A stretch of DNA of 62,227 nt from a virus (Duplodnaviria; Caudoviricetes): the IMG/VR virus record IMGVR_UViG_3300011115_000168, positions 1 through 62,227 of that record. One strand, given 5' to 3'. A program made the position numbers and the translations under genes. Each line of letters opens with the position of its first letter. Within the stretch, counting starts at the first letter, position 1. The notes beneath the pieces were generated by a model that was not told the origin of the DNA, searched no databases, and saw only the letters and a program-made list of their open reading frames with translations. Positions 14,469-35,475 of this stretch are shown here, in pieces.

Positions 14469-14711
14469 ATGGAGTCGCTCAATACAGTATGGTCTGCGGG
14501 CCTAACAATGGCTACGACGGTGATCGGGTTTCTGCTCAAGGAGAAATTTGCAGAACTGAACCGGATAAGCATTTTGCTCAATAAGACACGAGAGGAAATC
14601 GCCCGTGATTACGTTACTCAAACAGAAATTCAGCGCATTACTGACCACATTGACCGGCAGTTTAACAAGCTTGAAGCAAAAATTGACCAGCTTATTCAAG
14701 CGGGGAAGTGA
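14469..14711 (+). CDS. Small protein with N-terminal hydrophobic helix and coiled coil
   Basis: Coupled ORF. Confidence 0.7.
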   Translation: MESLNTVWSAGLTMATTVIGFLLKEKFAELNRISILLNKTREEIARDYVTQTEIQRITDHIDRQFNKLEAKIDQLIQAGK

Positions 14712-15100
14712 TGCCAAGCAGTAGTGCAAAGCAGCATAGATTCATGGAGGCGGTGGCTCACAACCCATCGTTCGCCAAGAAAGCAGGGGTTCCACAGTCC
14801 GTGGGCCAAGATTTTAGCAAAGCCGATAAAGGCAAAACATTTAAACGAGGTGGTGATATGGCTACAAAGATGGACCCCAAGATGATGGCTATGATGATGA
14901 AGAAAAAATCACCTGCAGCCCCCCGCTCCGCAATGGCTCCCGCCGCCCCTGCTGGTGGTATGGGCATGATGAAAAAGGGTGGCATGGCTAAGATGGCTGG
15001 CGGCGGTTTGGCTGCTGGTCACAAGAGCGCTGATGGCATTGCCTCTAAGGGTAAGACCAAGGGTAAAGAAATCGCAATGAAGCGCGGCGGTAAGTGCTAA
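14708..15100 (+). CDS. Basic Met/Lys-rich protein with xxxGG motifs
   Basis: FKRGG, MKKGG, MAGGG, MKRGG; ADGIASKGKTKG. Confidence 0.75.
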   Translation: MMPSSSAKQHRFMEAVAHNPSFAKKAGVPQSVGQDFSKADKGKTFKRGGDMATKMDPKMMAMMMKKKSPAAPRSAMAPAAPAGGMGMMKKGGMAKMAGGGLAAGHKSADGIASKGKTKGKEIAMKRGGKC

Positions 15101-15110
15101 GGAGCTAATC

Positions 15111-15335
15111 ATGGCTACTAAACCCTCCAACTACGACGACGTGATGGATGCCAAGATGCAGGCTAAAAACAATGCTGCATACGACGCTGCTGACAGCACT
15201 CCTGCAAACCCCAAATCCACTGCGGGTGCGGGGCAAGGCATGCGGGGTGTCAAGAAGATGGCTAAGGGTGGTTCCGCTTCTAGCCGTGCGGACGGCATTG
15301 CTCAACGTGGTAAGACTCGCGGCATGATTTGCTAA
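15111..15335 (+). CDS. Small basic protein with MAKGG and SASSRADGIAQRGKTRG module
   Basis: AAGGAG RBS; shares a module with its neighbours. Confidence 0.75.
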   Translation: MATKPSNYDDVMDAKMQAKNNAAYDAADSTPANPKSTAGAGQGMRGVKKMAKGGSASSRADGIAQRGKTRGMIC

Positions 15336-15345
15336 GGAGAACAAA

Positions 15346-15660
15346 ATGGGTAATTTTCTTGAAAATACAGTCAGCGGTATTGGCGATGCTGTAGGCCGTG
15401 TCGGTGAAGGGCTGGGTAATGCCTTTAAGGGCTTGACCGGCGGTTCTGGCATGTCTAATAAATCTGAAGGCGAGATGGGTGAGCTACGCAAAAAAATCAT
15501 AGAGATGGACGAAGCGCAAAAAGGCAAGCAAGGCGTACCTATGAAAAAGGGCGGTTCAGTTTCTAGCGCCTCCAGCCGTGCGGATGGTATTGCTCAGCGT
15601 GGTAAGACTCGCGGCACGATGATCATGTGCGGCGGTGGAATGGCTAGGGGCAAAAAGTGA
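15346..15660 (+). CDS. Small basic protein with MKKGG and SASSRADGIAQRGKTRG module
   Basis: AAGGAG RBS; C-terminus paralogous to the previous ORF. Confidence 0.75.
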   Translation: MGNFLENTVSGIGDAVGRVGEGLGNAFKGLTGGSGMSNKSEGEMGELRKKIIEMDEAQKGKQGVPMKKGGSVSSASSRADGIAQRGKTRGTMIMCGGGMARGKK

Positions 15661-15935
15661 GACCCTCGCGCGGTATGGGTGACATTGCTCCTTCGAAGAT
15701 GCCGAAGGCAAAGACAATTGTCCGTAAAGACAATCCAAACGATGTCACCATGTACGCTGAGGGTGGCGAGGTCAATGCTGCGGGAAACTACACCAAGCCG
15801 AGCTTGCGTAAACGTATCGTGTCCCAAGTGAAGGCTGCGGCTACGCAAGGTACAGGCGCTGGACAGTGGTCAGCCCGTAAAGCGCAGCTTGTAGCTAAGA
15901 AGTACAAGGCTGCTGGTGGAGGATATCGTGATTGA
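15657..15935 (+). CDS. Basic protein, DUF5872-like N-half
   Basis: YTKPSLRKRI...GQWSARKAQL..KKYK..GGGY. Confidence 0.65.
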   Translation: MRPSRGMGDIAPSKMPKAKTIVRKDNPNDVTMYAEGGEVNAAGNYTKPSLRKRIVSQVKAAATQGTGAGQWSARKAQLVAKKYKAAGGGYRD

Positions 15936-16044
15936 ACACACTAAAGACTGTCTGCTTGAAGAAGCCGGTCAATGCACTTGCGATGCAATGACTGACAAAG
16001 AAATTGATGCTGAACTACTTGAAAAAGAGGACGCAAAAGAGTGA
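15928..16044 (+). CDS. Tiny acidic Cys/His peptide (38 aa; not in ORF track)
   Basis: GGAGG RBS plus GTG; MIEHTKDCLLEEAGQCTCDAMTDKEIDAELLEKEDAKE overlaps both neighbours. Confidence 0.55.
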   Translation: MIEHTKDCLLEEAGQCTCDAMTDKEIDAELLEKEDAKE

Positions 16045-16274
16045 AAGCGCCGCAGCAGTCCCTGAAGAATTGGGGCGACCAGAAATGGCGTACCAAGTCG
16101 GGGAAGCCGTCGTCAAAAACAGGTGAGCGTTACCTCCCTGAAGCTGCTATAAAGTCCTTGTCCCCAGCCGAGTACGCTGCAACCACCAAAGCAAAACGCG
16201 CTGGTAAAGCAGCAGGTAAACAATTCGTAGCGCAGCCCAAGAGCATTGCAAAGAAAACAGCAGGTTTTAGATAA
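16041..16274 (+). CDS. Basic protein, DUF5872-like C-half
   Basis: QQSLKNW..QKWRTK...ERYLP.AAIKSLS...GKQFVAQP. Confidence 0.65.
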   Translation: MKAPQQSLKNWGDQKWRTKSGKPSSKTGERYLPEAAIKSLSPAEYAATTKAKRAGKAAGKQFVAQPKSIAKKTAGFR

Positions 16275-17197
16275 TGGCCTATACCACTGGCACTACCAGC
16301 TTCAACTTAGACCTCAACGATCTGATTGAGGAGGCTTATGAGCGGGCCGGTGTAGAGGTGCGTACGGGCTATGAGTTTCGTACGGCACGTAGGTCTTTGA
16401 ACCTGATGACGATTGAGTGGGCTAACCGGGGCATCAACCTGTGGACCATCCAAGAGGGCGCTATTGCCATGGTTACGGGTCAGGCTATCTACCCCTTACC
16501 AGCAGACACAATCGACCTGCTAGACCACGTTATCCGCCAGAACAATGGCACTGCGAGTACGCAGTCGGATATCAACATAACCCGCATCTCTGAGTCCACC
16601 TACTCCACCATCCCGAACAAGCTAACTAATGGACGGCCCATTCAGGTGTGGGTGAACCGCCAAACGGCGCAGACTAACTCTACGTCTGTGACCCTTAGCT
16701 CTACCATCACCAGTACGGATACAACCATAGCCCTCAGTGATACGTCTGGGCTTACTACTACTGGTTTTATCAAGATTGACTCGGAAACCATCGGGTACAC
16801 CAACGTCAGTGGCAATAGCCTGATCAACTGTCTGCGTGGACAGAATGGGACTACGGCAGCGGCACACACGGCTGCAGCGGCTATCTACGTCCAGAACTTG
16901 CCTTGTATCAACGTCTGGCCTACCCCTGATGCGGGTGGTAACTACACCTTTGTCTACTGGCGGTTACGTCGGTTGCAAGATGCTGGGAATGGCGTGAACG
17001 TCGAAGATATCCCTTTCCGGTTGATTCCCTGCATGGTTGCAGGCTTGGCGTTCTACATCGCGGCTAAGCGGCCTGATGCTGACCCGACACGGGTTGGGTT
17101 CCTAAAGGATGAGTATGAGCAGCAGTGGCTGCTGGCTTCCCAAGAAGACCGGGAAAAAGCCTCGGACCGGTTTGTCCCAAGAATGCTTTTCTATTGA
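16274..17197 (+). CDS. Putative head-tail connector/adaptor protein
   Basis: 307 aa in the neck module; ARRSLNLM..EWANRG. Confidence 0.6.
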   Translation: MAYTTGTTSFNLDLNDLIEEAYERAGVEVRTGYEFRTARRSLNLMTIEWANRGINLWTIQEGAIAMVTGQAIYPLPADTIDLLDHVIRQNNGTASTQSDINITRISESTYSTIPNKLTNGRPIQVWVNRQTAQTNSTSVTLSSTITSTDTTIALSDTSGLTTTGFIKIDSETIGYTNVSGNSLINCLRGQNGTTAAAHTAAAAIYVQNLPCINVWPTPDAGGNYTFVYWRLRRLQDAGNGVNVEDIPFRLIPCMVAGLAFYIAAKRPDADPTRVGFLKDEYEQQWLLASQEDREKASDRFVPRMLFY

Positions 17198-17205
17198 GGT
17201 GAAGC

Positions 17206-17595
17206 GTGGCTACTAAATACGCTTCTGGCAAGTTTGCGATTGCAGAATGTGACCGATGCGGGCAACGATACAAACTTAGTGAGCTCAAGAAAGAGGTCAT
17301 TAAGACAAAGCTTTTTCAGATCAAAGTCTGCCCCACCTGTTGGGACCCAGACCAACCTCAGCTATCATTAGGTTTGTACCCAGTAAATGACCCGCAAGCG
17401 GTGCGTGAACCCCGTCCTGATGTGTCTTATGTAACCTCAGGAACAGACGTAAACGGCTACCTTGCAGGGGGGTCTAGGGACATTCAGTGGGGTTGGGCTC
17501 CAGTTGGCGGGGCTAGTTATTTTGATATAGGTTTAACACCCAACTACTTGGTCGGAACCACAAGTGTTGGCACGGTAACAGTAACGGTTTCATAG
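17206..17595 (+). CDS. Zn-finger (CxxC...CxxC) protein
   Basis: CDRC...CPTC. Confidence 0.7.
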   Translation: MATKYASGKFAIAECDRCGQRYKLSELKKEVIKTKLFQIKVCPTCWDPDQPQLSLGLYPVNDPQAVREPRPDVSYVTSGTDVNGYLAGGSRDIQWGWAPVGGASYFDIGLTPNYLVGTTSVGTVTVTVS

Positions 17596-17601
17596 GAGTC
17601 C

Positions 17602-17814
17602 ATGATGGCTAAAAGTGACAGCAAAGAAGACATGAAAAGTGACACGGCGCAGGACAAGGCCATGATCAAGAAGGCGTTCAAGCAGCATGATGCTCAAGAG
17701 CATAAAGGCAGCAAGGGCACTACGCTGAAGCTGAAGAAGGGTGGGCCCACTACGGATGACCGTATGCGCCTTGGTCGTAACATGTCCCGCGCTAAAAACC
17801 AAGGGAGCAAGTAA
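17602..17814 (+). CDS. Small basic protein (LKKGG)
   Basis: AGGAG RBS; Lys-rich. Confidence 0.7.
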   Translation: MMAKSDSKEDMKSDTAQDKAMIKKAFKQHDAQEHKGSKGTTLKLKKGGPTTDDRMRLGRNMSRAKNQGSK

Positions 17815-18065
17815 TGGCATACACCATGAAACAAGGTGGCAAAGAGGTTGGCCCCGCCAGCGTCTATGCACCTCCACACACAATGGATGGTAAGCCCATG
17901 AAGGGTTCTTCAGGCCCCAACCAAAGCAAATTGGATACGCTTGATATTGCTATTGGCCCGTATAGCAAGTCCGCTGGTAGCGAACAACCTAAGACAACTG
18001 GTATCAAAATCCGTGGTACTGGCTGCGCTACCAAAGGCACGATGGCACGAGGACCAATGGGATGA
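17814..18065 (+). CDS. Small basic protein (MKQGG; IRGTGCATKG)
   Basis: Coupled ORF. Confidence 0.7.
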   Translation: MAYTMKQGGKEVGPASVYAPPHTMDGKPMKGSSGPNQSKLDTLDIAIGPYSKSAGSEQPKTTGIKIRGTGCATKGTMARGPMG

Positions 18066-18757
18066 ACTATTCTGAGCTTTCGGCGGCAATACAGACCTAC
18101 ACGGAAAATAATTTTCCGGCGATTACCCTTGCGGATTCGTCTACGGTCTCGTCTACGGCTCAGATTAACCGCTTCATACAGCAGGCAGAGCAACGCATTT
18201 ACAACTCGGTGCAGTTCCCCTCGTTACGTAAGAATGTGACCGGAACCGTTGCAGCAAACGCCAAGTACTTATCTGCCCCTGATGATTTTCTTGCCCCGTA
18301 TTCAATGGCAGTTTATTCAGGCACTGGGCCATACACGTACCTGTTGAACAAGGATGTGAACTTCATTCGTGAAGCCTATCCAACTCCTACTGATACTGGC
18401 ACACCTAAGTACTACGCACTGTTTGGCCCAACGGTTGCAAACTCCGTGATTACTACAGAACTGTCGTTCATCATTGGTCCTACGCCCGATGCAACGTACT
18501 CAACTGAGCTTCACTATTACTACTACCCTGAGTCCATTACCACAGCATCGACAACATGGTTGGGCGACAACTTTGATACAGCATTGTTGTACGGTTCGCT
18601 AGTAGAGGCATACACCTTTATGAAGGGCGAAGCAGACTTGGTTGCTCTATACGACGGCAAGTACAAGGAAGCCCTTGCACTGGCTAAACGTCTGGGTGAT
18701 GGCATGGAGCGGCAGGATGCGTACCGCAGTGGTCAATTTAGGCAGGCGGTGACATGA
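18062..18757 (+). CDS. Tail tubular protein A/adaptor-like protein
   Basis: 231 aa; G.PKYYA...GPTPD...LLYGSLVEAY; synteny. Confidence 0.6.
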   Translation: MNYSELSAAIQTYTENNFPAITLADSSTVSSTAQINRFIQQAEQRIYNSVQFPSLRKNVTGTVAANAKYLSAPDDFLAPYSMAVYSGTGPYTYLLNKDVNFIREAYPTPTDTGTPKYYALFGPTVANSVITTELSFIIGPTPDATYSTELHYYYYPESITTASTTWLGDNFDTALLYGSLVEAYTFMKGEADLVALYDGKYKEALALAKRLGDGMERQDAYRSGQFRQAVT

Positions 18758-19170
18758 GCATCGTCCAAACGCAGACCACCAGCTTCAAGAAGGAGTTGTA
18801 TCAGGCCGTTCATAACCTGTCCACGGACACCCTCAAGATTGCGCTCTACACGGGTAATGCCAACTTGAACGCAGACACTACAGTCTATTCAACTACCGAC
18901 GAGGTTGTAGCGTCTGGCTATACAGCAGGTGGCAATACGTTGACTGGAGTGGCTATCAGTTCTGCTGACTACACAGCGTATGTGAACTGGGCAAACACAT
19001 CTTGGACGGCGGCTTTGACGGCCCGGTGCGCTTTGATTTACAACGTGACCCAAGGCAATAAATCCATTGCAGTGATTGACTTTGGGGCGGACAAAACCTC
19101 GACCACGACCTTTACAATCACCATGCCTGCCAACACGTCCACCACCGCACTTATCAGGAGTTCAAATTGA
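18754..19170 (+). CDS. Virion structural protein (paralog of 19365-19841)
   Basis: TSFK.EL...DTLKIALYT...GYTAGG. Confidence 0.7.
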   Translation: MSIVQTQTTSFKKELYQAVHNLSTDTLKIALYTGNANLNADTTVYSTTDEVVASGYTAGGNTLTGVAISSADYTAYVNWANTSWTAALTARCALIYNVTQGNKSIAVIDFGADKTSTTTFTITMPANTSTTALIRSSN

Positions 19171-19355
19171 TTGTCACTACGACCAAAGGTGAGATGGATG
19201 ATTCCTTGCTGGAACACCGTTCGGGTGAGGTGGACAATGAAAACGAGTTGACTACGTGGACAGAGTATTGGCTGAATGACGAATTGGTTCATCGGTCAGT
19301 GCATGTTACGTTGAAAAAGATGCCTCCACTGGGTGGCGAAACCGGTACTTTTTAA
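19167..19355 (+). CDS. Hypothetical protein
   Basis: Coupled ORF. Confidence 0.65.
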   Translation: MIVTTTKGEMDDSLLEHRSGEVDNENELTTWTEYWLNDELVHRSVHVTLKKMPPLGGETGTF

Positions 19356-19364
19356 GGATTCATC

Positions 19365-19841
19365 ATGGCAAACACCGCTTCAATGTGTACCTCCTTTATG
19401 GGGGAACTCCTGACTGCTACACATAATTTTGGTGTAGCCCCTATCCGTGCAGCTACCACTGCCGATACGTTTAAAGGCGCGTTGTATCTGACGAGCGCAA
19501 CCATCAATGCGGCTACTACGGCCTACACAGTTACCGGTGAAGTTTCCGGTACTGGCTATTCGGCTGGTGGGGTTACAGTGACTAACGCTACGGCTCCTTC
19601 GTCTACCAACAGTTCATCGACTGCTGGTGTGGCTTACTGGACTCCGTCTGCGTCAATCACATACACATCGGTCACTTTGACTACGGCGTTTGATACGGTG
19701 CTGATGTACAACTCGACGCAAAGCAATAAAGCTGTGGCTGTTTATACGTTTGGCAGTCAGACCGTTACGGCTGGTACGTTCACGTTGACCATGCCGTCTA
19801 ACACTACGACTACTGCTTTGTTGCGGTTGGCGACAACCTAA
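19365..19841 (+). CDS. Virion structural protein (paralog of 18754-19170)
   Basis: TSFM.EL...DTFKGALYL...GYSAGG. Confidence 0.7.
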   Translation: MANTASMCTSFMGELLTATHNFGVAPIRAATTADTFKGALYLTSATINAATTAYTVTGEVSGTGYSAGGVTVTNATAPSSTNSSSTAGVAYWTPSASITYTSVTLTTAFDTVLMYNSTQSNKAVAVYTFGSQTVTAGTFTLTMPSNTTTTALLRLATT

Positions 19842-19850
19842 AGGTAGGTT

Positions 19851-20459
19851 ATGGCTGGCTGGGGCGTAGGCGCTTGGGGTCTAGGCACTTGGGGCAATGG
19901 CGAAACCATCCTTGTAGGGGATGCAACAACCGGTTCCGTAGGCACAGCAGGCGTAGAAATCACAGTCGCCCTTACGGGGGTTTCTGCTACGGGGGCCAGT
20001 GGGACTGAGAACCCGAACAGGACGGTTGCGTTAACAGGGGTTGAAGGTTCAGGCGCTGTTGGGGCTTTAGAGGTAAGCGGCTCACCAGCTTTGTCGGGTG
20101 TGGAAGCTAGTGGAGCAGTTGGAACTGTAATACCCGGTAAAGCTTATGCGCTGACTGGGGTTGAGGCGCTGGGTGCTACGGGGTCAGTTATTGTCCCCCT
20201 GTTACCAGATACGGCGATAGGCGAAATTGGCACAGTTGGATACGAGACGGTTGTTGAGTTGTCTGGTGTGTCTGCCAGTGGCGCTGTGGGCTCGTTGAGC
20301 CTTGGGCCAAGAAGTTTTGCGCTTACGGGCAATTATGCCCAAGCGGATATTGGAGTTGTTGTGGCGGTTTACTGGAAGCTGATTGATGACGTGCAAGACG
20401 CAAACTGGCAAAAGATAAACAACTCCCAAACGGCAAATTGGACTACCATAGTAAATTGA
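19851..20459 (+). CDS. Tail-associated protein with L(T/S)GVxAxGxVG repeats
   Basis: Repeated Gly/Val/Ala units and WGxGxWG at the N-terminus. Confidence 0.7.
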   Translation: MAGWGVGAWGLGTWGNGETILVGDATTGSVGTAGVEITVALTGVSATGASGTENPNRTVALTGVEGSGAVGALEVSGSPALSGVEASGAVGTVIPGKAYALTGVEALGATGSVIVPLLPDTAIGEIGTVGYETVVELSGVSASGAVGSLSLGPRSFALTGNYAQADIGVVVAVYWKLIDDVQDANWQKINNSQTANWTTIVN

Positions 20460-20467
20460 GGTAACAA

Positions 20468-21418
20468 ATGACTACTGCATACACCTCCCTCTTGGGTCTC
20501 GCCCTTCCGGTGACGGGCGAACTGTCGGGTACGTGGGGCGACACGGTTAACAACTCCATCACTTCGTTGCTGGACTCTGCCATTGCTGGCACGACCACAC
20601 TGAGTTCTGATACTGACGTAACCCTAACGACCACCACTGGAGCAGCCAACACTGCCCGCGAAGCAATCCTGTTGTGGACAGCAGGGGGCACGGTAACCCG
20701 CAACATCACAGCCCCAGCGCAATCCAAGGTTTACATCGTCATCAATGCAAGCTCTAGCACTCAGAGCATTGTTCTGCGTGGGGTAGGCCCGACTTCTGGA
20801 GTAACCATCCTCAAGGGGGAAGTGGCGGTTTGTGTTTGGAATGGTTCTGACTTTGTCAAGTCTGCCAATATCGGCGCGGCTACCTTTACATCGGTGACGG
20901 ATTCTGGCCTGACATCGGGCCGAGTGACCTACGCATCCACAGGTGGCTTGCTGGTTGATTCAGCAAACTTGACCTACAACGGCGTTACCTTGACGACCGC
21001 AGGAGCATCAACGGCCTCTGCCTTCAAGACACCCAACATCACTGAAGTGGACACCATCTCTGCAACTGCGGCGACCGGAACTATCAACTTTGATATCACC
21101 ACGCAGTCCGTGCTGTACTACACCAGCAATGCATCGGGTAACTGGACGTTGAACTTCCGTGGCTCCAGCGGCACATCGCTGAACACTGTGATGGCTACTG
21201 GAGAATCTCTGTCCGCTACCTTCCTCGTCACCAACGGCACAACGGCCTACTACAACAGCGCTGTGACCATTGACGGCACATCGGTAACTCCAAAGTGGCA
21301 GGGCGGCTCTGCGCCCACCAGCGGCAACGCAAGCTCCACTGACTGCTATACCTACGTCATCCAGAAAACAGGCAGCGCCACCTACGTTGTGCTGGCCTCG
21401 CAGACCAAGTTCGCATAA
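20468..21418 (+). CDS. Tail fibre proximal/adaptor protein
   Basis: Thr-rich, G..SGTWG..N N-terminus; precedes the long fibre. Confidence 0.65.
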   Translation: MTTAYTSLLGLALPVTGELSGTWGDTVNNSITSLLDSAIAGTTTLSSDTDVTLTTTTGAANTAREAILLWTAGGTVTRNITAPAQSKVYIVINASSSTQSIVLRGVGPTSGVTILKGEVAVCVWNGSDFVKSANIGAATFTSVTDSGLTSGRVTYASTGGLLVDSANLTYNGVTLTTAGASTASAFKTPNITEVDTISATAATGTINFDITTQSVLYYTSNASGNWTLNFRGSSGTSLNTVMATGESLSATFLVTNGTTAYYNSAVTIDGTSVTPKWQGGSAPTSGNASSTDCYTYVIQKTGSATYVVLASQTKFA

Positions 21419-21428
21419 GGGATAACCG

Positions 21429-25415: not shown

Positions 25416-25424
25416 GGAGAACAC

Positions 25425-25757: not shown

Positions 25758-25760
25758 ATC

Positions 25761-26898: not shown

Positions 26899-27092
26899 TA
26901 TCCATTCCCGTCCTCTACATTTGCGTTGCAGCACACTGCGAGTTCTTGCAGCAGCTTACCCATTACGCTGATAGGAAGCTGTGCATGGAAGCCGCAGAAG
27001 CAAAGAAGCAGGAGTACATCAGGCTGGGCGCTAAAGTAGACGCAACGTGTATTGACCTAATTGTTCAAAAAAGGGGTAGTTATGAGTCTTAG
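26895..27092 (+). CDS. Small Cys-rich protein
   Basis: Four Cys; coupled between holin and endolysin. Confidence 0.55.
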   Translation: MISIPVLYICVAAHCEFLQQLTHYADRKLCMEAAEAKKQEYIRLGAKVDATCIDLIVQKRGSYES

Positions 27093-27420
27093 TACCGAAC
27101 AAGCAGCGTTTCTGCTGGATTTCTGTAAGCTGGTGCAGTACGCCACCGACCAAGGTTTTATGGTTACCGGCGGGGAACTTGCCCGTACCCCGGAGCAGCA
27201 GGCCATCTACTTCAAGACAGGCCGGTCTAAGACCATGAACTCCATCCACCTCAAGCGTTGCGCTGCCGACCTGAACTTCTTCCGTGATGGCAAAATCATC
27301 TGGGACAAGGCCACCATTGCTCCGCTGGGTGCGTACTGGGAGACGTTACACCCAAAAAATCGCTGGGGCGGAAACTTTAAGAGCTTGGTAGACTGCCCGC
27401 ACTTTGAACGGAACGTGTAA
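27082..27420 (+). CDS. Endolysin, M15 family Zn peptidase
   Basis: RT.EQQ, S.H...A.D, WGG.F...D.PHFE. Confidence 0.85.
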   Translation: MSLSTEQAAFLLDFCKLVQYATDQGFMVTGGELARTPEQQAIYFKTGRSKTMNSIHLKRCAADLNFFRDGKIIWDKATIAPLGAYWETLHPKNRWGGNFKSLVDCPHFERNV

Positions 27421-27428
27421 CCGCCACC

Positions 27429-29546
27429 ATGCCACTACAAAAAGTCATTCTCAAGCCCGGTGTAAATAGGGAGAACACCCGCTACACCAACGAGGGCGGG
27501 TACTACGAATCTGACAAGGTTCGGTTCCGCCAAGGCACGCCTGAGAAAATTGGTGGGTGGCAGCGCATCTCGGCAAATACGTTCAGCGGCCTGTGCCGCT
27601 CTCTGTGGAATTGGATAACGCTGGGTTCGTTAAACCTGCTGGGTGTTGGTACTAACCTCAAGTTCTACATTGAGCGCGGCGGTGCGTACTACGACATCAC
27701 TCCTATCCGTACTACCAACACGCTGACCAACCCGTTTACCACAGCTACGTCTACCAATACAGGCACAACGACTACGGTCTTAGTTACTGACGCTAACGGC
27801 GGGTTCATCAACAACGACTACGTCACTTTCGATGTGGGCGGCGCGGCCTCGGTCACGTTCAACGGCATCACCATCACCACCAATACTGAGTACCAGATTA
27901 CGTACGTAAGCTCCTCGACCTACAACATTACGGTAACCGGCACAGCATCGGCAAGTTCTGCTGGTGGCGGAACCATCTACGCTGTCTACCAAATCAACAC
28001 AGGCCCATCTTATGCGGCTCCTTTGGTTGGATGGGGTTCAAGTACTTGGGGCTCTGGCGCTTGGGGTATTGGTACTGCGTCTACGGACGCTTTGCGCATT
28101 TGGAACCAAGTTAACTGGGGTGAAGACCTTGTGTACGGCCCTCGTGGTGGGCCTTTGTATTACTGGGACGCAGCTAAGAATGTGAACGGCTCCATAGCTA
28201 CGCTGACCATTGCGTCTCCTTGTGTAGTCACAGCCAATGTAAGCCTTGCAGATGGCACACCAATTAGTTTCTCTACTACTGGGTGGTTACCGACTGGGCT
28301 GTTGCCGGGAGTTACGTACTACACTAAATACATATCTGCGTTTACGTTTAATTTAGCAGCCACGTCGGGCGGTGCTTCTATTAATACAAGCGGTACGCAA
28401 TCTGGTACGCAGACCATCAATGCTAACGGGGTACTACTGTCTTCCTTGACCGGCGCGGATGGGTACACCCCGCTGTACCAGAACTACTTTACGGTGTCTG
28501 ATGTCAGCCGGTTCTTACTTGTTTTTGGCACGAACGATTACGGCAGCACTACGCTTGACCCCATGCTTATCCGGTGGTCTGACCAAGAATCGTTGACTAC
28601 GTGGTATCCGGCAGTGACTAACCAAGCGGGCAGTGTGCGCTTGTCCCATGGCTCTAAAATTGTTGTTTCACTGCAAAGCCGTCAGGAGCTTCTGGTCTTC
28701 ACTGACCAAGCCCTTTATTCGCTTCAGTACCTTGGCCCCCCATATGTGTGGGGCACACAACTGCTTGTAGACAATGTATCGATTGCAGGGCCAAATGCAG
28801 CGGCTATTGCTTCGGGTGTTACCTATTGGATGGGCGTAGACAAGTTCTACAAATACGATGGACGGGTTCAAACTTTGCGTTGCGACCTACGTCAGTACAT
28901 CTATAGTGACATCAATACCCTTCAATACGACCAGATATTTGCTGGGACGAATGAGGGCTTCAATGAGGTATGGTGGTTCTATTGCTCACAAAATAGTGTG
29001 GACAGCAGGATTGACCGGTATGTTGTCTACAACTACGCAGAAGATATTTGGTACTACGGGTCTATGGCCCGTACTGCTTGGCTGGATACTGGCTTACGCA
29101 ACTTCCCCATTGCAGCCACATATAGCTACAACATCGTGAACCATGAGTCCGGTGTGGACAACAACGAGACCGCAACCGCACTGCCTATTGAATCATCTAT
29201 TACTACCGCCCAGTACGACATTGGGGATGGGCACAACTTTGCGTTTGTGTACCGCATGATTCCTGACTTGACGTTTCGTGGGTCTACGTCTGGGACTACA
29301 CCACAAGTGACCATGTATCTGCAGGGTCTGAACAACTCGGGCTCTGGCATCACGCAGACCGGCAACGCTAATGTGGTCAACACAGGTTCGGCCCCTTCGG
29401 TCATCAACGTAGATGAATTTACCGGGCAGGTTTATATCCGCGTCCGTGGTCGCCAGATGCAAATGAAGATTACTTCCAACACGCTTGGTACGCAGTGGCA
29501 GCTTGGCGCTCCCCGCGTTGATATCCGTCCTGACGGCAGAAGGTAG
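27429..29546 (+). CDS. Tail tubular protein B/nozzle (P22 gp10-like stabilisation protein)
   Basis: 705 aa beta-rich protein; IRWSDQE; precedes the ejection proteins. Confidence 0.65.
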   Translation: MPLQKVILKPGVNRENTRYTNEGGYYESDKVRFRQGTPEKIGGWQRISANTFSGLCRSLWNWITLGSLNLLGVGTNLKFYIERGGAYYDITPIRTTNTLTNPFTTATSTNTGTTTTVLVTDANGGFINNDYVTFDVGGAASVTFNGITITTNTEYQITYVSSSTYNITVTGTASASSAGGGTIYAVYQINTGPSYAAPLVGWGSSTWGSGAWGIGTASTDALRIWNQVNWGEDLVYGPRGGPLYYWDAAKNVNGSIATLTIASPCVVTANVSLADGTPISFSTTGWLPTGLLPGVTYYTKYISAFTFNLAATSGGASINTSGTQSGTQTINANGVLLSSLTGADGYTPLYQNYFTVSDVSRFLLVFGTNDYGSTTLDPMLIRWSDQESLTTWYPAVTNQAGSVRLSHGSKIVVSLQSRQELLVFTDQALYSLQYLGPPYVWGTQLLVDNVSIAGPNAAAIASGVTYWMGVDKFYKYDGRVQTLRCDLRQYIYSDINTLQYDQIFAGTNEGFNEVWWFYCSQNSVDSRIDRYVVYNYAEDIWYYGSMARTAWLDTGLRNFPIAATYSYNIVNHESGVDNNETATALPIESSITTAQYDIGDGHNFAFVYRMIPDLTFRGSTSGTTPQVTMYLQGLNNSGSGITQTGNANVVNTGSAPSVINVDEFTGQVYIRVRGRQMQMKITSNTLGTQWQLGAPRVDIRPDGRR

Positions 29547-29548
29547 AC

Positions 29549-29848
29549 ATGGGACAAAAAAACGTAGTCGCGCCCCGGCTTCCTGCTGCCCCGGAAATGT
29601 ATGACCGTCAGGCTATGAATGAGATTTTTCGGGTTCTTTCGATATACTTCAGGCAATTGGACAACAACGGCCCTATAGCTATCAGCACTCAGCGAAATGG
29701 TACAGATGTTGTTGCAGCGTTAAGCGCCCCGCCTACAGGTAATACATCGGTTCCCAGCTTGCCAACGCAGGCAGATTTGGCTAGTTTGCGGGTTGGGGAC
29801 ATCTACTACGACACAAGCGCAAGTAATGTGCTTAAGGTCAAGACGTAA
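29549..29848 (+). CDS. Hypothetical tail protein
   Basis: Synteny after the nozzle gene. Confidence 0.65.
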   Translation: MGQKNVVAPRLPAAPEMYDRQAMNEIFRVLSIYFRQLDNNGPIAISTQRNGTDVVAALSAPPTGNTSVPSLPTQADLASLRVGDIYYDTSASNVLKVKT

Positions 29849-29862
29849 GAAAGAGGTAAATT

Positions 29863-32199
29863 ATGGCCTTCGGTTTTGATGATTTTGCAGGTTTATTTGA
29901 CCCCATATCCGACGTACTAGGTACGTCTGGGCGCAAAGGCGTAGGCCTACTCCAACAAGAACCCGAAGACCTTCAACGCGCAGCTATGTTGGCTGCCCTA
30001 GCTGCATCTGGATATGGCATGTTAACTGCCGCTGCCCCCGGAGCCGCTGGGGTTGCCGCCGCTGGAGCCCCCGCTACTCTTGTTACACCCAGCGCCGGTA
30101 TTTTGGCAGCGGCCCCTGAAGCTGCGGCAGTGGTAGCTCCCGAAGTTGCGTCCTTAGGCGCGGAAGAAGCCACTAGACTTGCAATGGAAGAAGCTGCAAA
30201 GGAAGCTGCACAGGAAAGTATTGTGCAATCAGCCAAACTAGACCCTGGTTTGCTACGCGATGTAAGCGCGGATGGTATTCAAACCGCCGACGCAGGTGGC
30301 AATTATCTTGAAACTATACGGGATAAACTTTTTGGCAAACCAGTTGAGTTAGACCCTTCCAAAATGCCACCGGATTATGTGTCGCTTCACGCAGAACAAC
30401 CATTTGCAAGGACTAGCGCTTATGCAGATTTAAATGCAGTGCCTCCCGGCCTAGAAGCTGAAATTAATGCCCAACAAATTGCTGATTATGGAACGCAACC
30501 TATTAGAGGTGGGGCTTCTACTTATTTAGATGAACCAACTGAAGAGTTAATTAAACAAAACACTCCCGAGTACGCTAATTATTTAGACGCAACAAACACT
30601 AGCCGTTATAGAGGCAGTTTTGACGACTATCAAAGAATTAATCTAGAAAATGAGTTTGCTAAAAGGTCCGCCGCTGCGCCGCCTTCTACTATTCAGCATT
30701 TTGATAACCCCGCATCTACTACCCAAAACGTATTCCGGGGTAACCCTGCTGAAGCGGGTTTTCAACCGCCTCAAGTAACAAGAGGTGGGTACTTCAACAA
30801 CGGTATCAATGGTGAATACACCGATACGCTGACTCCATTTGAGCGGGGGATGGATACTGCTGGAAGATACTTTGATAAAACAACAGACTACATAGAGAAG
30901 AATCCCTATAAATCTGCTGGCCTAGCTTATTTTGGTGCATCTAAACTGGGGCTGCTTGATCCACCTAAGCAAGAACCCATTGCGGACAATTACAAGAACC
31001 CGTACACCATGACTGGGTTCCGTCGGTCTTCGCCTAGTCCGTCTGCTTATCAGTACAAGCCCCGCTATGCCCAAGGTGGTATTGCCAGCGTACAAGGCTA
31101 CGCAAAGGGCGGACGGTCTAAGGCTGAGTCGGCGATGGACTTCTACGATGCCATGAACCCCCAGCAGGAAGCGCCACCTCTCAGGCACGGTGACCCCGGC
31201 ATTTACTATGACATGGACCCAGACACGCGGTATCTAGACCCAATGGAAGCCGCCATGGTGCGCATGTCCAAGCTCAACAGCCGTACCAACGTGCAGGCTC
31301 CTACTATGGCTCCGTCTAGGCGCATGGGTGAGTTGGACTTCAAACCCGTTGCCGCTGCGCAAGGCGGGATCATGGGCTACGCTAGTGGTGGAGATGTCCC
31401 TATTGAGGAAAATCAGTTCAATAAGCTAACTGGGCGTGGTAATGGTAGGCCTGAGGATCACAACCCTGCGTGGACTAATGCTACTCCAGCAGAAAAAGCT
31501 GCTTATTACAAAGAACGCCCAATGCAAGGAGCTTTTAATCGTGTTTTGTACCAAGGATTGAAATTTGCGCCTTTTATTGGCCCAACATTACGCCTTCAAG
31601 AAATGACAAACCCTGAGTTTGTAGCTAACCAACAAGCTATATGGAATGGGTATGACCCCGCTGCATTTGCGGAAGGCCCTCCAGACCCAAATTTCAACGG
31701 TCAAGCAGCCGCAGCAGCACGTCAAGAAGGTCAAATAGCGGCAGTAAATGCGGCAAATGCAGCGGGTGCAGGGTTGGCAGCTAATCCTATGAGTACAGAC
31801 CCCTCACAACGAGGTGGCGGTGGTGGCGGTGGTGGGGCTAGTAATAGCAATCCGGGAGACACCGGTAGAGGTGGTGGCGGCGCGCATTTAGCTCAAGGCG
31901 GTGGCATCATGGGGTACAACCTCGGTGGCTATGCTTCTGGGGGAAACCCTAGGTTACTTCGTGGGCCCGGAGATGGCATGAGTGACCACATCCCTGCTAC
32001 CATCAACAATCGCCAACCAGCACGCTTAGCCGACGGAGAGTACGTAATCACTGCGGATGTGGTGTCACATCTGGGCAATGGCTCAACCGAAGCGGGTGCA
32101 AGACAACTAGATGCAATGATGAAACGAATTCGCAAAGGTCGGACGGGCACTCCTAAACAGGGTAAGCAGATTAACCCTCGTAAGTACTTGCCTGCATGA
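29863..32199 (+). CDS. Internal virion/ejection protein with multiple YAxGG motifs and C-terminal GPGDGxSDxIPA...GEYV domain
   Basis: Low complexity, seven xxxGG motifs, compact C-terminal domain. Confidence 0.7.
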   Translation: MAFGFDDFAGLFDPISDVLGTSGRKGVGLLQQEPEDLQRAAMLAALAASGYGMLTAAAPGAAGVAAAGAPATLVTPSAGILAAAPEAAAVVAPEVASLGAEEATRLAMEEAAKEAAQESIVQSAKLDPGLLRDVSADGIQTADAGGNYLETIRDKLFGKPVELDPSKMPPDYVSLHAEQPFARTSAYADLNAVPPGLEAEINAQQIADYGTQPIRGGASTYLDEPTEELIKQNTPEYANYLDATNTSRYRGSFDDYQRINLENEFAKRSAAAPPSTIQHFDNPASTTQNVFRGNPAEAGFQPPQVTRGGYFNNGINGEYTDTLTPFERGMDTAGRYFDKTTDYIEKNPYKSAGLAYFGASKLGLLDPPKQEPIADNYKNPYTMTGFRRSSPSPSAYQYKPRYAQGGIASVQGYAKGGRSKAESAMDFYDAMNPQQEAPPLRHGDPGIYYDMDPDTRYLDPMEAAMVRMSKLNSRTNVQAPTMAPSRRMGELDFKPVAAAQGGIMGYASGGDVPIEENQFNKLTGRGNGRPEDHNPAWTNATPAEKAAYYKERPMQGAFNRVLYQGLKFAPFIGPTLRLQEMTNPEFVANQQAIWNGYDPAAFAEGPPDPNFNGQAAAAARQEGQIAAVNAANAAGAGLAANPMSTDPSQRGGGGGGGGASNSNPGDTGRGGGGAHLAQGGGIMGYNLGGYASGGNPRLLRGPGDGMSDHIPATINNRQPARLADGEYVITADVVSHLGNGSTEAGARQLDAMMKRIRKGRTGTPKQGKQINPRKYLPA

Positions 32200-32627
32200 T
32201 TGAAGTCTCGATGGTTCCTAGGGAGTACATAGATACTTGTTGGGACAAAGTTGAGGCGTATTTAGAAAAAGCAGCCGAGCACACGCACGGGCGCTTTACA
32301 GTTGACGACATCTATAATTCCATTATTGGTTATGACCATGACCTGTGGGTGGCTTATGACGGTGTTGATATAAAAGGCGCTGTAGTCACTAATTTTGCCG
32401 TGTATCCACGCAGCAAGTACTTGACGATGCAGTTTTGTGGTGGTGTAGAGCTAAAGAGTTGGAAAGACCCTATGCTGAGCTTGCTGAGACGTTACGCTAA
32501 AGACATGGGATGCGACGGCATCGAGTCCACAGCACGCCGGGGCTGGGCTAAAGTCTTTCAAGACGACGGATACAAAGGTACTTGGGTTACTTTCCAACTG
32601 CCTCTTGAAGGAGTAAATCATGGGTAA
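32196..32627 (+). CDS. GNAT-fold-like protein of the internal-virion module
   Basis: 143 aa between ejection genes (position of T7 gp13/P22 gp14); AKDMGC..IE...R.GW. Confidence 0.55.
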   Translation: MIEVSMVPREYIDTCWDKVEAYLEKAAEHTHGRFTVDDIYNSIIGYDHDLWVAYDGVDIKGAVVTNFAVYPRSKYLTMQFCGGVELKSWKDPMLSLLRRYAKDMGCDGIESTARRGWAKVFQDDGYKGTWVTFQLPLEGVNHG

Positions 32628-35475
32628 AGGCAGCAGTGGCGGTGGGCAACCCACGCAGACTAGCAGTAATGTAACGAACACCAACGTACCTGAGTACGCA
32701 CGTCCGTATGTGGAGAACATGCTGTCGGCAACTCAAAGCCAACTGTTCAAGATGGATGGGAGCAATATAAGTGGCTTCCAACCCTACAAAGCATACGGCG
32801 GTACATACGACGAAGCTGGCAACCAAACAGCCTACGATCCTAGCAAAGCAATTGCTGGATTTAGCCCCCTGCAACAAAGGGCTATGGACATGTCTAGTGG
32901 GCCTGAGGGGTTTGCACAGAATGTGGGCGGCTACATGTCGCCCTACATGCAGAACGTAACGGACATTCAGAAACGTGAAGCCGCCCGTCAGTCGGGCATT
33001 CAAGGAATTCAACAACAAGCCCAAGCTACTCAGGCCGGTGCGTTTGGCGGTAGCCGTGATGCTATTCAACGCGCAGAACGCGAACGCAATCTTGCCCAGC
33101 AGATGGGTGATATTCAAGCGCAGGGTTCACAAGCTGCGTTTGCCAATGCACAAAATCAGTTCAATACCAACCTTGGGCAGATGAGCGCTGCTGGCGCACT
33201 CCAGCAGCAGAACCAACAGCAGGCTATTAATCAGTCCATGCAGGACTACGCCAACGCACAGCAGTACCCGTTGATGCAGTTGGGCACAATGTCTAACATG
33301 CTACGTGGCCTGCCCATGCAGGCTCAGACTACCCAGCAGTACCAAGCACAAGCTAACCCCATCACGCAGGGCATTGGTGCTATTGGCTCACTAGGCTCCT
33401 TAGCGCAAGTGAAAGCTGAAGGCGGTGCTGTTCGTAGCATGGCCTCAGGTGGCATTACGTCCATCCCCCGCTATGACGTTGGCGGCGCGGTAGTGAGCCA
33501 ACTTGCAACCATGCCCGATGAGGCGTTGAAGAAAGAGGCTATGGAGTCTCCTAGCCCCCGTGTTCGTGAGATGGCTGCAGCGATCCTCAAGCAACGCCAA
33601 GCTGGCCTAAATGCAGAGCCACAGATGGAAACTGCTCCTCAAGGCGTGGGCCCCATGGGTGTGGACTACAACGCCAACTACGCTGGCGGTGGCATCATTG
33701 CGTTTGCTGATGGCAAGAAAGTCGATGCAGAAGAGGCAGCGCGTTTGGCTAAGCAAACGGAGATGTACATAGCAGGGGCCAAACTAGCCGCTGATCAACG
33801 CGACGCTGATAGGTTAGAAGCCCTAGCCAAACAACCTGCTTCTAAAGGTATTCCCGCACTTCTTGATCGAAATGCCCCTGCATATACAAGCGCTAGCGCT
33901 GCAGCACCGGGTCAAACTCTTATTCAGCGTCAACCTAATGAGTCCTTTGAACAGTTTAGGCAGCGGGAAATTCAAGCACAAACTGCTGCCCAAGCGCAAA
34001 GAGCTTTAGCGTTACAAGATCAAACTGAGAAAGAACGCCTTGCAGAACTAGCTAAACGCAGAGAAGCAGGGCAGATACCCGCTCCAAGTCCTTTTGTAGA
34101 TGCTACTAAACTTCCTGATGTTGGTTCAGCACGTAAGAAGACTCTATCGCAAGACGAAATGCGGGCAGCGGCAGCAAATACAGCGAATAGCAGTGGCATA
34201 AAACCCTATGTTGGCCCAAGCGGTAAAGCTTCAGAAATCTCTACTCTGCTGCAAGGGGGCCGTGAGCCTATTGGCATAGATAGCGTAGGTACTACTGCTG
34301 AGAAACGCGCCCCCGTTGTTACTGAAAAACGCGCCCCTGTTGTAGTTAAAGAAGCCGCCGCCCCAGTTGTTGTAGCTAAAGCTCCTCCCGCGCTTCTTGA
34401 TAGAAATGCTCCGCCCTATACAGGCGTGGCTGTTGAAGCTGCGCCTACGGGGATTGCTGCTGTTGATCCGTTGGCTGATTCAAGGGCGACTCTTAAAACT
34501 CTTCAATCCGAAGCTAACAAGACTCAAGAACAAATCTACAAAGAAAACCAAGCGGCGTTGAAAGCGCAAGGGCTTGACACCTCTGAGGCACGCGACCAAT
34601 ACATGAAGGCTCAGCAAGCCCAACGCGCTGAGACCGAGAAGAGCTTCCAGAACCGTGAGTACCTGCGCCGCGCTGCGTTCTTTGCTAAGTGGGGTTCTAC
34701 GCCCGGTAACACTCTGGTTGCTGGCATGTCGGCATTGAAAGAAACAATTCCTGATGTTATCCAAGACGCCACGGAAAAACGTGCGGCGTTGCAACTGGCA
34801 GATAAAGCTATCTACGAATTGGGCGAAGCCGTCCGGTTGGAGAAGCTTGGCATGTGGGAGAAAGCTGCTGCACAAAAACTTAAAGCAGCCGAAACTGCAG
34901 CTACCTTGCAAGGCCAGATCACGCAAGCTTCGGCAAGCATTGAAGGTCATAGGATTAGCGCTAAGGGCACGACTGACGCTGCTGGCATACGCGCAGCGTC
35001 GGATGAGAAAACCACCGAAATGACTGCCTCTGCTACTAGATATTCTGCTGACCAACGTCTGGCGGCTGAAAAACTTTCTTCAGCAGCTTCTGCAAGGGCT
35101 ACAGCAGAGGCAGCGGCTGGTCGCCTAAATAAAGTTCAATTTGAGGCTATCAATAGAGCAGCGGAAAAACTTAACCGCCTACCTAGTGAAATTGAAGCAG
35201 TACACAGTAAAAACCCTGATTATGTGGCTGCTGTCAAAGCCAAAGCTACGGCAGAGCGGGTGCTTGCTAATAACCCTGACAGCGCGCCAATGAAAGCGCA
35301 ACTAGCTAACGCACAGAAAGTGATTAGCGGATTTACGGCAGGTGATAACAAGATACTTGGCGAAGCTAGACAAAGGCTAGAGGCGATGGAAAAACGCTAC
35401 TATGGCCCTGACTATGTTGCTAGCCCTGCTGCTTCTGCAGATGCTGACCCCCTAGGACTCAGAAAGTCTAAATAA
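32620..35475 (+). CDS. Internal virion/DNA ejection protein
   Basis: MGKGSSGGG start, Gln/Ala-rich, GAFGGSR, xxxGG motifs. Confidence 0.7.
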   Translation: MGKGSSGGGQPTQTSSNVTNTNVPEYARPYVENMLSATQSQLFKMDGSNISGFQPYKAYGGTYDEAGNQTAYDPSKAIAGFSPLQQRAMDMSSGPEGFAQNVGGYMSPYMQNVTDIQKREAARQSGIQGIQQQAQATQAGAFGGSRDAIQRAERERNLAQQMGDIQAQGSQAAFANAQNQFNTNLGQMSAAGALQQQNQQQAINQSMQDYANAQQYPLMQLGTMSNMLRGLPMQAQTTQQYQAQANPITQGIGAIGSLGSLAQVKAEGGAVRSMASGGITSIPRYDVGGAVVSQLATMPDEALKKEAMESPSPRVREMAAAILKQRQAGLNAEPQMETAPQGVGPMGVDYNANYAGGGIIAFADGKKVDAEEAARLAKQTEMYIAGAKLAADQRDADRLEALAKQPASKGIPALLDRNAPAYTSASAAAPGQTLIQRQPNESFEQFRQREIQAQTAAQAQRALALQDQTEKERLAELAKRREAGQIPAPSPFVDATKLPDVGSARKKTLSQDEMRAAAANTANSSGIKPYVGPSGKASEISTLLQGGREPIGIDSVGTTAEKRAPVVTEKRAPVVVKEAAAPVVVAKAPPALLDRNAPPYTGVAVEAAPTGIAAVDPLADSRATLKTLQSEANKTQEQIYKENQAALKAQGLDTSEARDQYMKAQQAQRAETEKSFQNREYLRRAAFFAKWGSTPGNTLVAGMSALKETIPDVIQDATEKRAALQLADKAIYELGEAVRLEKLGMWEKAAAQKLKAAETAATLQGQITQASASIEGHRISAKGTTDAAGIRAASDEKTTEMTASATRYSADQRLAAEKLSSAASARATAEAAAGRLNKVQFEAINRAAEKLNRLPSEIEAVHSKNPDYVAAVKAKATAERVLANNPDSAPMKAQLANAQKVISGFTAGDNKILGEARQRLEAMEKRYYGPDYVASPAASADADPLGLRKSK

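Follow-up and report, generated by a model that had tools for sequence, protein, structure and literature searches.

What does a short peptide ending in two glycines do when it recurs in a whole series of late proteins of one virus? The question is raised by a window of 62,227 bp, i.e. the whole stretch of DNA that was analysed (IMG/VR record IMGVR_UViG_3300011115_000168; Duplodnaviria; Caudoviricetes), which is a complete podovirus record with direct terminal repeats; its source virus is a member of a freshwater podovirus group. An earlier reading of the letters alone (below, the sequence-only reading) had listed about 20 pentapeptides of the type [MYFL]-[AK]-x-G-G in about eight late proteins, and had suggested either a cleavage site or an address label for packing proteins into the head. 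Every listed pentapeptide is indeed present in its open reading frame (ORF), according to a listing of contexts with DNA coordinates. At full length the motif reads hydrophobic-[A/K]-x-G-G-x-[A/V/S], with the pentapeptide as its core, and it is confined to late proteins, one set of which is encoded beside the adaptor gene and the other after the tail nozzle gene. In both sets it sits at joints between independently shuffling modules.

Among the 76 ORFs of the window, the strict pattern [MYFL][AK]xGG has 18 matches in 9. Shuffling each protein's own residues 2000 times gives 4.07 ± 1.97 matches (maximum 12) in 3.60 ± 1.67 proteins (maximum 11). Since the shuffles never reach 18, composition alone fails to explain the pattern, and the control scan that had been proposed along with it thus comes out in its favour. 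The numbers of strict matches observed and expected are, respectively, 4 and 0.16 for ORF 14708, 5 and 0.32 for ORF 29863, and 2 and 0.18 for ORF 32620. Five small ORFs have one strict match each, of which the lone matches in 15346 (P 0.12) and 17814 (P 0.06) are not significant individually, and the 2 matches in the Gly-rich ORF 21429 do not exceed chance (0.84 expected). No strict match occurs in the terminase, the portal, the capsid protein, the nozzle, the protein of 2249 amino acids (aa) or the replication genes, which agrees with the earlier remark that it was not noticed in terminase, capsid protein or replication enzymes.

The sequence-only reading was less exact about the pattern itself, because MCGGG, AAQGG, YNLGG, KAEGG, and YDVGG from its list do not fit the form it gave. 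The GG of these five (and all of YNLGG) stands in columns that are identical across the aligned relatives. Two positions ahead of GG, the residue seen most often in the 136 GG contexts outside ORF 21429 is Ala (23); three positions ahead, Tyr (13) and Met (9) occur more often than their background frequencies of 0.037 and 0.033 predict. The pattern was defined after inspection, and a test on other sequences was therefore needed.

The motif in the large ejection-type proteins

Two large proteins encoded after the nozzle gene carry the motif:

29863..32199, + strand: ejection-type protein of 778 aa, with motif pairs at residues 402/413, 498/506, and 676/685/690
32620..35475, + strand: ejection-type protein of 951 aa, with KAEGG, MASGG, and YDVGG (33412-33486) and YAGGG (33679-33693)

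An alignment of 29863 with five related viral contigs (6 sequences including the window, 54-64% identity over the whole alignment) has invariant columns at Y402, A403, G405, G406, I407 and then Y413, K415, G416 in the first pair; at G501, G502 and then G509, G510 in the second; and at G679-G681 and then Y690, A691, G693, G694 in the third group. The motif blocks of 32620 are invariant in 4 aligned sequences. At the very start of the latter protein (32620-32640), the N-terminus M-G-K is invariant in four homologues and is followed by a Gly run.

A HMMER search with 29863 as the query yields 5806 cluster representatives at E <= 1e-10 and, at the looser limit of E <= 1e-3, 8643. Most of them match residues ~675-778; a highly conserved C-terminal domain of this protein is encoded at 31888-32196, and at least 593 viral contigs carry this domain. 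The replication set comprised 144 representatives among the matches listed, chosen beyond the six closest. In these distant relatives the widened pattern, [MYFLIVW][AK]xGG, occurs 519 times compared with 52.5 ± 6.9 in shuffles, and 139 of the 144 have at least 2 copies; the conservation across related phages that had been named as a check is thus borne out. The logo derived from the same set is [Y47% M24% F16% L11%]-A94%-x-G-G-I46%-[A35% T21%]-S26%, and motif starts are preferentially 8 (49 cases) or 11-13 (52 cases) residues apart.

Gene context points the same way. In 80 viral loci, motif density is 5.41 per 1000 aa in the ORFs with the domain and 0.20 in the 218 ORFs upstream of them. A motif lies at most 20 residues before the domain anchor G-x-G-D-G-x-S-D in 63 of the 80 loci, and the downstream ORFs, at the position of 32620, mostly have 1-4 motifs. 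The domain-adjacent site reads YAAGG in 100 of 149 representatives and has GG in 138 of 149, while sites of the form [YFM]-A-x-?-?-I-[AT]-S have GG in 48 of 48. Substitutions hardly ever affect the first Gly, and in rare cases the second gives way to S, D or E. The family alignment has its blocks in a fixed order, with two motif pairs separated by a conserved helical block, then a variable linker, and finally motifs that enter the C-terminal domain; because of this order, the motifs can be regarded as fixed parts of a conserved unannotated family.

The 29863 family has no Pfam or PHROG match, and the ESM Atlas yields 'hypothetical' viral clusters only. Neither 29863 nor 32620 has a sequence match in the PDB, nor does the 29863-family profile, and the 32620 profile returns only four PDB rows, at E 0.024 or weaker. 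The modelled stretches fold poorly: AlphaFold2 (AF2) gives the last 120 residues of 29863 (47 rows) a predicted local distance difference test (pLDDT) of 52.5, too poor for a fold search, with 40-46 over the first 70 residues of that stretch and no confident hairpins, and the ESM Atlas model of the whole protein has a pLDDT of 0.44. Some mycobacteriophage tape-measure genes show weak matches to the C-terminal domain of 29863.

The tail and the joints of the small late proteins

The motif-bearing small proteins lie on either side of the adaptor gene:

14708..15100, + strand: small basic protein of 130 aa, with phrog_16759 on residues 2-47 and, on the same strand, FKRGG (14840-14854), MKKGG (14969-14983), MAGGG (14993-15007), and MKRGG (15077-15091)
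15111..15335, + strand: small protein of 74 aa with a variable N-terminus, tail at 15252-15332, MAKGG at 15258-15272
15346..15660, + strand: small protein of 104 aa with the same tail at 15538-15657, from MKKGG (15541-15555) and extended by MCGGG (15625-15639)
15657..15935, + strand: protein of 92 aa with a conserved N-terminal peptide of 36 residues ending in YAEGG (15753-15767), followed by a conserved C-terminal domain
17602..17814, + strand: small protein of 70 aa, LKKGG at 17731-17745
17814..18065, + strand: small protein of 83 aa, MKQGG at residues 5-9 (17826-17840)

The tail is a C-terminal module of ~25 residues with the motif at its start, followed by a basic stretch. For ORF 15111, a search among proteins of 40-130 aa gives 722 relatives (E <= 0.01). 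In an alignment of 23 rows the N-termini are unalignable and 13 columns are invariant, all of them in the C-terminal module, the initiator Met aside; in 15111 numbering, the tail is invariant at A51, G53, G54, A56, S57, R59, A60, D61, G62, G67, K68, and T69. Among the relatives listed, the tail is at most 16 residues away from the C-terminus in 116 of 120 proteins of near length and in 77 of 77 longer ones, opens with the strict motif in 116 and 76, and ends in a terminal Cys in 58 and 66, respectively. In many relatives another motif stands nine residues ahead, or an additional hydrophobic-x-K-G-G is followed by two or three residues and the stop. As for the other members of the set, ORF 14708 has a variant basic tail after MAGGG, with two residues and the stop after its MKRGG, and the C-terminus of 17814 (18000-18062) resembles, judged by eye, a divergent form of the tail.

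The tails of 15111 and 15346 have 54 nucleotides (nt) in common at 89% identity, and these encode an almost identical peptide, which argues for paralogy under purifying selection. The motif regions of 14708 and 15111 share 27 nt at 74%. Tail matches are found in 10 of 11 complete related genomes, whereas tblastn of 15111 against named phages gives no match. A profile comparison between the small-protein and the large-protein families aligns only the 9-column motif, with a probability of 1.4%; a derivation of the tail from the C-terminal domain of the large family by truncation was therefore discarded. Thus, the earlier description of a pentapeptide tag on otherwise dissimilar proteins stands for the unrelated N-termini and has to be revised for the rest: the small proteins share a homologous C-terminal module of ~25 residues, and the large ones carry the motif at fixed positions of a conserved multi-block family.

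A 140-aa antisense ORF (15105-15527, − strand) extends over 15111 and 15346 and was chosen by a length-greedy gene call. It is very likely spurious, because the ORFs of the + strand have hundreds of conserved relatives.

The position at module boundaries, proposed earlier for 15657 in particular, is supported by the start of its domain, by bracketed cassettes in its relatives and by an N-terminal fusion in 14708. In 15657, phrog_17747 covers residues 37-91, a domain that begins straight after YAEGG. Among the 120 longer relatives of 15657 in the matches listed, the N-terminal peptide ends in hydrophobic-x-x-GG in 119, GG stands two residues before the conserved C-terminal domain in 114, and both GG sites are present around unrelated cassettes of ~70-140 residues in 108. 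Within the group itself, the 15657 homologue of genome G005 (L011:570-950, − strand) has a 34-residue insert, which is a small case of the same cassette rule since it is flanked by two motif copies, YAKGG and MKEGG.

The phrog_16759 module at the N-terminus of 14708 (about 47-49 residues, ending in FKRGG) is present in the window and in G003, while in G001 and G005 the 14708-type gene begins just past the point of the first motif and the module is absent. P0331 and P0347, among the relatives listed, have the 17602 N-terminal module fused to the canonical tail, the point of fusion being exactly its hydrophobic-K-x-GG. The phrog_16759 module and DUF6321, which in the window forms the motif-free ORF 14223, are parts of long virion proteins in other phages. 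That small modules stand within long virion proteins elsewhere fits the picture of polyvalent proteins given by Iyer et al. 2017. In all these contexts the residues before GG are common, and those after it depend on the context (IAS, SAS, KV).

Possible roles of the motif

The reading tentatively favoured here, which we regard as possible rather than probable, is that the motif is a junction signal that is cut in proteolytic processing. It is preferred because the motif closes modules, stands on both sides of cassettes and, in its final copy, has only a few residues after GG; because the shared residues precede GG and later ones vary with context; and because a candidate peptidase adjoins and precedents exist (T4, adenovirus, and polyvalent proteins). 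A protein active in virion maturation or in ejection would recognise the motif, most likely as a proteolytic site. The modules, each built as a body plus hydrophobic-x-x-GG, would be strung together like a polyprotein, the last GG being capped by a few residues. The best candidate for the cutting enzyme would be the zincin-like HExxH domain of the co-encoded 2249-aa protein, and the invariant basic stretch of ~20 residues after the motif may be the part that anchors or incorporates the small proteins. A more specific version, which seems unlikely as it stands and draws on analogy, would make the system a tailed-phage counterpart of adenovirus core maturation: the zincin domain would act in the virion, cutting junctions either in the head or after ejection, and the basic tail would be an incorporation signal. 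Zincin-like peptidases have been proposed as processors of polyvalent virion proteins in the available text of Iyer et al. 2017 (PMC5512222).

The sequence-only reading had seen no prohead protease between the portal and capsid genes, and a search of the ORFs in between agrees: none is found in 8884, 9301, and 10733 by Pfam and PHROGs, or in 8685 and 10278 by PHROGs only. Elsewhere in the genome there are two peptidase-like domains, a zincin-like HExxH domain in ORF 35475 and DUF2201_N in ORF 57699:

35475..42224, + strand: giant internal protein of 2249 aa with LPD38 and a zincin-like domain, motif-free
about 38235-39077, + strand: zincin-like domain, with HExxH at 38565-38579 (residue 1031)
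57699..59003, − strand: protein of 434 aa with DUF2201_N, a putative metallopeptidase domain (HExxH), and a VWA-like domain, according to Pfam

LPD38 (PF18857) is matched on residues 1934-2118 of the 2249-aa ORF with E 1.5e-15 and 58.2 bits (cut-off 27). The zincin-like domain has no Pfam or NCBIfam match. In an alignment of 17 rows (32-60% identity), three features are invariant, namely HExxH itself, a Glu located 64 residues after it, and D-x-x-x-Y-D on its upstream side. The AF2 model (pLDDT 82.5, predicted template modelling score 0.83) comprises a helix, three strands, the HExxH helix, and a helical lower part. The top Foldseek rows for this model are zinc peptidases, all weak (E >= 0.16). 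According to VIA-align, the best match is the catalytic domain of anthrax lethal factor (Z 7.1, root-mean-square deviation 4.1, 146 residues aligned), followed by the PhiM1 ejectosome chain 8vb2_A (Z 6.3), Pro-Pro endopeptidases (Z about 6), and many zincins (down to Z 5); such moderate values may reflect a common structural arrangement. A profile search reports the solved 'internal virion protein' 9sfn_G at E 1.9e-6, across HExxH. The PhiM1 ejectosome paper and a phiKMV-like preprint make no mention of a metallopeptidase. A single zincin segment finds 0 related loci and the alignment finds 21, and tblastn of the segment against named phages gives no match. On this sequence and model evidence, the domain is a plausible candidate for the processing enzyme.

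As for the DUF2201_N protein, it is present in 7 of 11 complete relatives and also in cyanophage MinM2. It was considered as a dedicated protease and rejected: it is absent in 4 of the 11, of which G014 and G019 keep strong tail matches, and its presence leaves the motif counts alike (3, 1, 2, 3 without it and 2, 5, 2, 2, 3, 2, 2 with it). Beside it, a 378-aa ATPase-like ORF with a P-loop (59238-60374, − strand) belongs to a replication-side module.

Several observations weigh against cutting. Tandem motifs 8-13 residues apart would give tiny peptides if all were cut. The motif that stands 11 residues ahead of the C-terminal domain shows the kind of conservation that part of a fold or a binding surface would have, and so do positions +1 to +3 of the large proteins. 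The second Gly varies to S, D, and E, and these residues also suit a tight turn. Regarding the enzyme, the zincin fold matches are moderate (Z 7.1 at best, Foldseek E >= 0.16), and, to our knowledge, the substrate preferences of the nearest structural matches are not GG. The zincin profile finds the domain in 5 of 11 complete relatives; the giant ORFs of 4 of 4 further complete relatives (G014, G019, G012, and G010) have one HExxH each, which counts for the enzyme, in a different sequence context, which counts against it, compared with a chance expectation of ~0.05 per 2000 residues by our own estimate from typical residue frequencies. The domain is also present in internal proteins of other phages (9sfn_G, 8vb2_A). 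Its putative link to the motif is one of co-occurrence, with motifs and HExxH both present in MinM2, and a single motif and no HExxH in the five GB2A proteins of this gene block. No peptidase of known GG specificity is found in the 43 of 76 ORFs scanned by Pfam (the other 33 are mostly small). Cleavage, capsid loading, and the presence of the small proteins in virions are, on sequence grounds, a hypothesis only.

Two other functional explanations are each somewhat doubtful and compete with cleavage. One is that the motif or tail is a docking or address label that is never cut and binds a folded virion component such as the scaffold, the capsid interior, the portal, the adaptor or the nozzle; it would recruit small basic and ejection proteins to the procapsid or core, several copies giving multivalent binding to a symmetric partner. 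The conserved C-terminal tail on unrelated N-termini (116 of 120 and 77 of 77 among the relatives listed) suits such a label, with an architecture like that of encapsulin cargo peptides and the C-terminal targeting signal of the HK97 protease, as do the purifying selection on the tails (54 nt at 89%, nearly the same peptide), the restriction to late proteins, the conserved +1 to +3 of the large proteins and the low-confidence models expected of linear motifs (pLDDT 40-46 over the first 70 residues; Atlas 0.44). It leaves unexplained, however, the module ends, the cassettes between two copies, and the ends formed by GG and 2-3 residues; moreover, what would be the 'cargo', the N-terminal part, is in many small proteins a short stretch of low complexity. 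A complex prediction with the capsid protein, the scaffold and 15111 scored 0.00 (mark 0.32), which decides neither way.

The other explanation, a structural turn or hinge without a dedicated reader, takes hydrophobic-A-x-G-G-I-A as a minimal strand, GG turn and strand. Tandem copies would form small hairpins or meanders that allow ejection proteins to remain unfolded in the head and to refold or oligomerise once past the tail, and the motif would occur at module joints as a handy flexible connector. This is consistent with the spacings of 8 (49 cases) and 11-13 (52 cases), with the symmetry about GG (A or K at −2, A or V at +2), with a first Gly that is almost fixed and a second that changes to S, D or E only, and with a motif that is an integral, invariant part of the block entering the C-terminal domain. 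The family also stands at the podovirus ejection-protein position, and such proteins change conformation, as far as the available text of PMC8954989 goes. Against a turn, AF2 gives no confident hairpins, the aromatic residue or Met and the A or K are strongly conserved across unrelated contexts, which points to recognition, and the small proteins are not known as parts of an ejection channel.

Explanations that dispense with function fare worse. Paralogy and recombination alone would mean that a few modules were duplicated and recombined at conserved DNA, the apparent system being an illusion of shared descent. The shared nucleotides (54 at 89% in the 15111 and 15346 tails, 27 at 74% in the motif regions of 14708 and 15111) and the large-protein motifs, which lie in blocks inherited across the family, speak for it. 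It is nevertheless improbable: the small and large families align nothing beyond the 9-column motif, unrelated cassettes also end in the motif, and selection on the motif is required because GG (138 of 149) and 13 tail columns persist where the remainder is unalignable. The last candidate, chance in Gly- and Ala-rich proteins, can appeal to ORF 21429 at chance level and to the single matches in 15346 and 17814 (P 0.12 and 0.06), but is refuted, and hardly credible any longer, because 0 of 2000 shuffles reach 18 (maximum 12), the excess is ten-fold in 144 independent representatives and the density is 27-fold that of neighbouring ORFs in 80 loci.

In phage T4, internal proteins have an N-terminal capsid targeting sequence that ends in a Leu/Ile-x-Glu site and depends on a prohead serine protease and the scaffolding core. 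The likeness is a short shared element on several different small internal proteins that combines an incorporation signal with a junction, here putatively cut. In contrast to T4, the conserved module of the window is C-terminal and built on hydrophobic-[A/K]-x-G-G, and the ORFs between portal and capsid protein give no prohead-protease match; in the 15657 family an N-terminal peptide of 36 residues has the motif at its end, whereas the other small proteins carry the element C-terminally. The adenovirus protease cuts at (M/L/I)-X-G-G|X and (M/L/I)-X-G-X|G in small basic core proteins and internal virion proteins. Here too a hydrophobic residue and then GG occur in several small basic or internal proteins, sometimes in close pairs. 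The hydrophobic residue of the window's motif, however, lies one residue further from GG (a five- instead of a four-residue spacing) with A or K in between, so the adenovirus consensus is not matched; moreover, the 43 of 76 ORFs scanned by Pfam include no cysteine protease of that family, and the virus is a tailed phage.

Encapsulin cargo peptides and the HK97 protease tail address proteins into a shell of the HK97 fold. The window resembles them in having a short conserved C-terminal peptide on variable N-termini. It shows no likeness to them in sequence, its large proteins have several internal copies of the motif, and loading is predicted only. T7 core proteins, for their part, are folded and helical, unlike 29863 and 32620, which have no sequence match to solved chains and are predicted to be largely disordered. 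A partial similarity to podovirus core proteins may be seen in the giant last protein, in which only the zincin-like domain matches the solved internal virion proteins 9sfn_G and 8vb2_A. As in T7 (gp6.7, gp7.3, and gp14-16), the genes follow the nozzle and small virion proteins are encoded near the head-tail connector genes, judging from the available text of PMC11784390 and PMC8954989. The window is like the polyvalent virion proteins of PMC5512222 in that its giant protein has LPD38 and a putative zincin-like domain, and in that small modules which stand alone here are parts of long proteins elsewhere; the available text of that paper names no cleavage motif, and in the window many modules are separate small genes and the motif-rich proteins adjoin the giant protein.

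A search of the literature by pentapeptide strings, with subscription journals and supplements outside its coverage, returned no description of the motif. Shared targeting or processing elements on virion-internal proteins are a known kind, while this motif, tail, and junction grammar appear undescribed in the literature covered. The motif offers a simple rule for many 'hypothetical' phage proteins, with 8643 representatives in the large family and 722 in the small one. Should the motif direct processing or loading, it would reveal a way in which internal proteins are sorted and matured in podoviruses that lack a prohead protease, it would provide a portable tag for foreign cargo in phage heads, and the zincin-like domain of giant ejection proteins would gain a concrete substrate set. 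If the more specific, adenovirus-like version is true, thousands of uncultured freshwater podoviruses and cultured cyanophages would have a motif-directed loading-and-processing system in common.

Cultured cyanophages hold all the parts, so the question is directly testable. MinM2 and two records of the same length contain the 29863-type C-terminal domain, which is preceded by YAEGG in MinM2; the latter also has a clear copy of the tail ending a 308-aa protein encoded between the capsid and adaptor genes, and combines motifs and tail with the same HExxH signature in a giant protein. The records Pag-Yong1 and Pra-JY27 likewise contain motifs, tail and HExxH domain. In Caulobacter phage GB2A the domain is preceded by MARGG and has the same neighbouring genes; the five proteins of the block (the nozzle homologue and four downstream) have one motif only and no HExxH. 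The records OQ594354.1, OL906435.1, and PP438419.1 are cyanophage entries under different host names, all of 65,014 bp and with identical match statistics, and their homologue of the domain protein has three different product names.

Gene layout and neighbouring ORFs

The remaining landmarks of the late half are as follows:

4627-6150, + strand: large terminase
6160-8688, + strand: portal
9301-10275, + strand: acidic scaffold-like protein, by a weak ESM Atlas lead alone
11352-12266, + strand: capsid protein of the Phage_capsid_4 / Mu gpT type
16274-17197, + strand: SU10-adaptor-like protein
between adaptor and nozzle, + strand: tail and fibre genes, then further small ORFs
27429..29546, + strand: tail nozzle protein, phrog_3287 (virion structural protein), motif-free

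The half on the minus strand consists of replication genes, and megablast of 14000-34000 against named phages gives no match. The nozzle protein has PDB sequence matches to the nozzle-named chains 8zkk_O (1.5e-9) and 8zkm_E (1.3e-9) and also to 9nwi_Y (9.2e-15). T7-like phages encode their core or ejection proteins in a run after the nozzle gene (compare PMC11784390). From the nozzle on, the order in the window is 27429, 29549, 29863, 32196, 32620, and 35475, the last gene (35475-42224) encoding 2249 aa, so the genes stand directly after the nozzle with a very large protein at the end, as expected of an ejection or core block. Since the identity of the nozzle fixes the context, the motif-rich large proteins can be placed at the T7 core/ejection gene position. 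The same order after the nozzle, with homologous pieces, is found in GB2A and MinM2.

Between the two motif-rich genes lies a 143-aa ORF (32196-32627, phrog_7642), which has the same length in 5 of 5 relatives (L001-L005) whose locus extends there. It has no Pfam, NCBIfam or PDB match, and an acetyltransferase-like assignment was dropped for lack of backing from these searches. Two small basic late proteins near the tail-bearing genes are motif-free: 14223-14468, with DUF6321 (E 2.6e-19), a domain that in other phages forms the C-terminal end of proteins of up to 928 aa, and 16041-16274, with phrog_14910 (E 6.3e-37). Between portal and scaffold, a 135-aa ORF (8884-9291) has weak GroES-like matches (phrog_3188 at 3e-10; NCBIfam GroES at 0.007-0.05, far below the cut-offs), and its product may be a head-assembly co-chaperonin. 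Finally, the 1328-aa product of the ORF at 21429-25415, probably a fibre, contains 20.6% Gly and 103 x-x-x-GG contexts; 28 nt within the ORF (22685-22712) are 93% identical to part of the Gly run of 29863.

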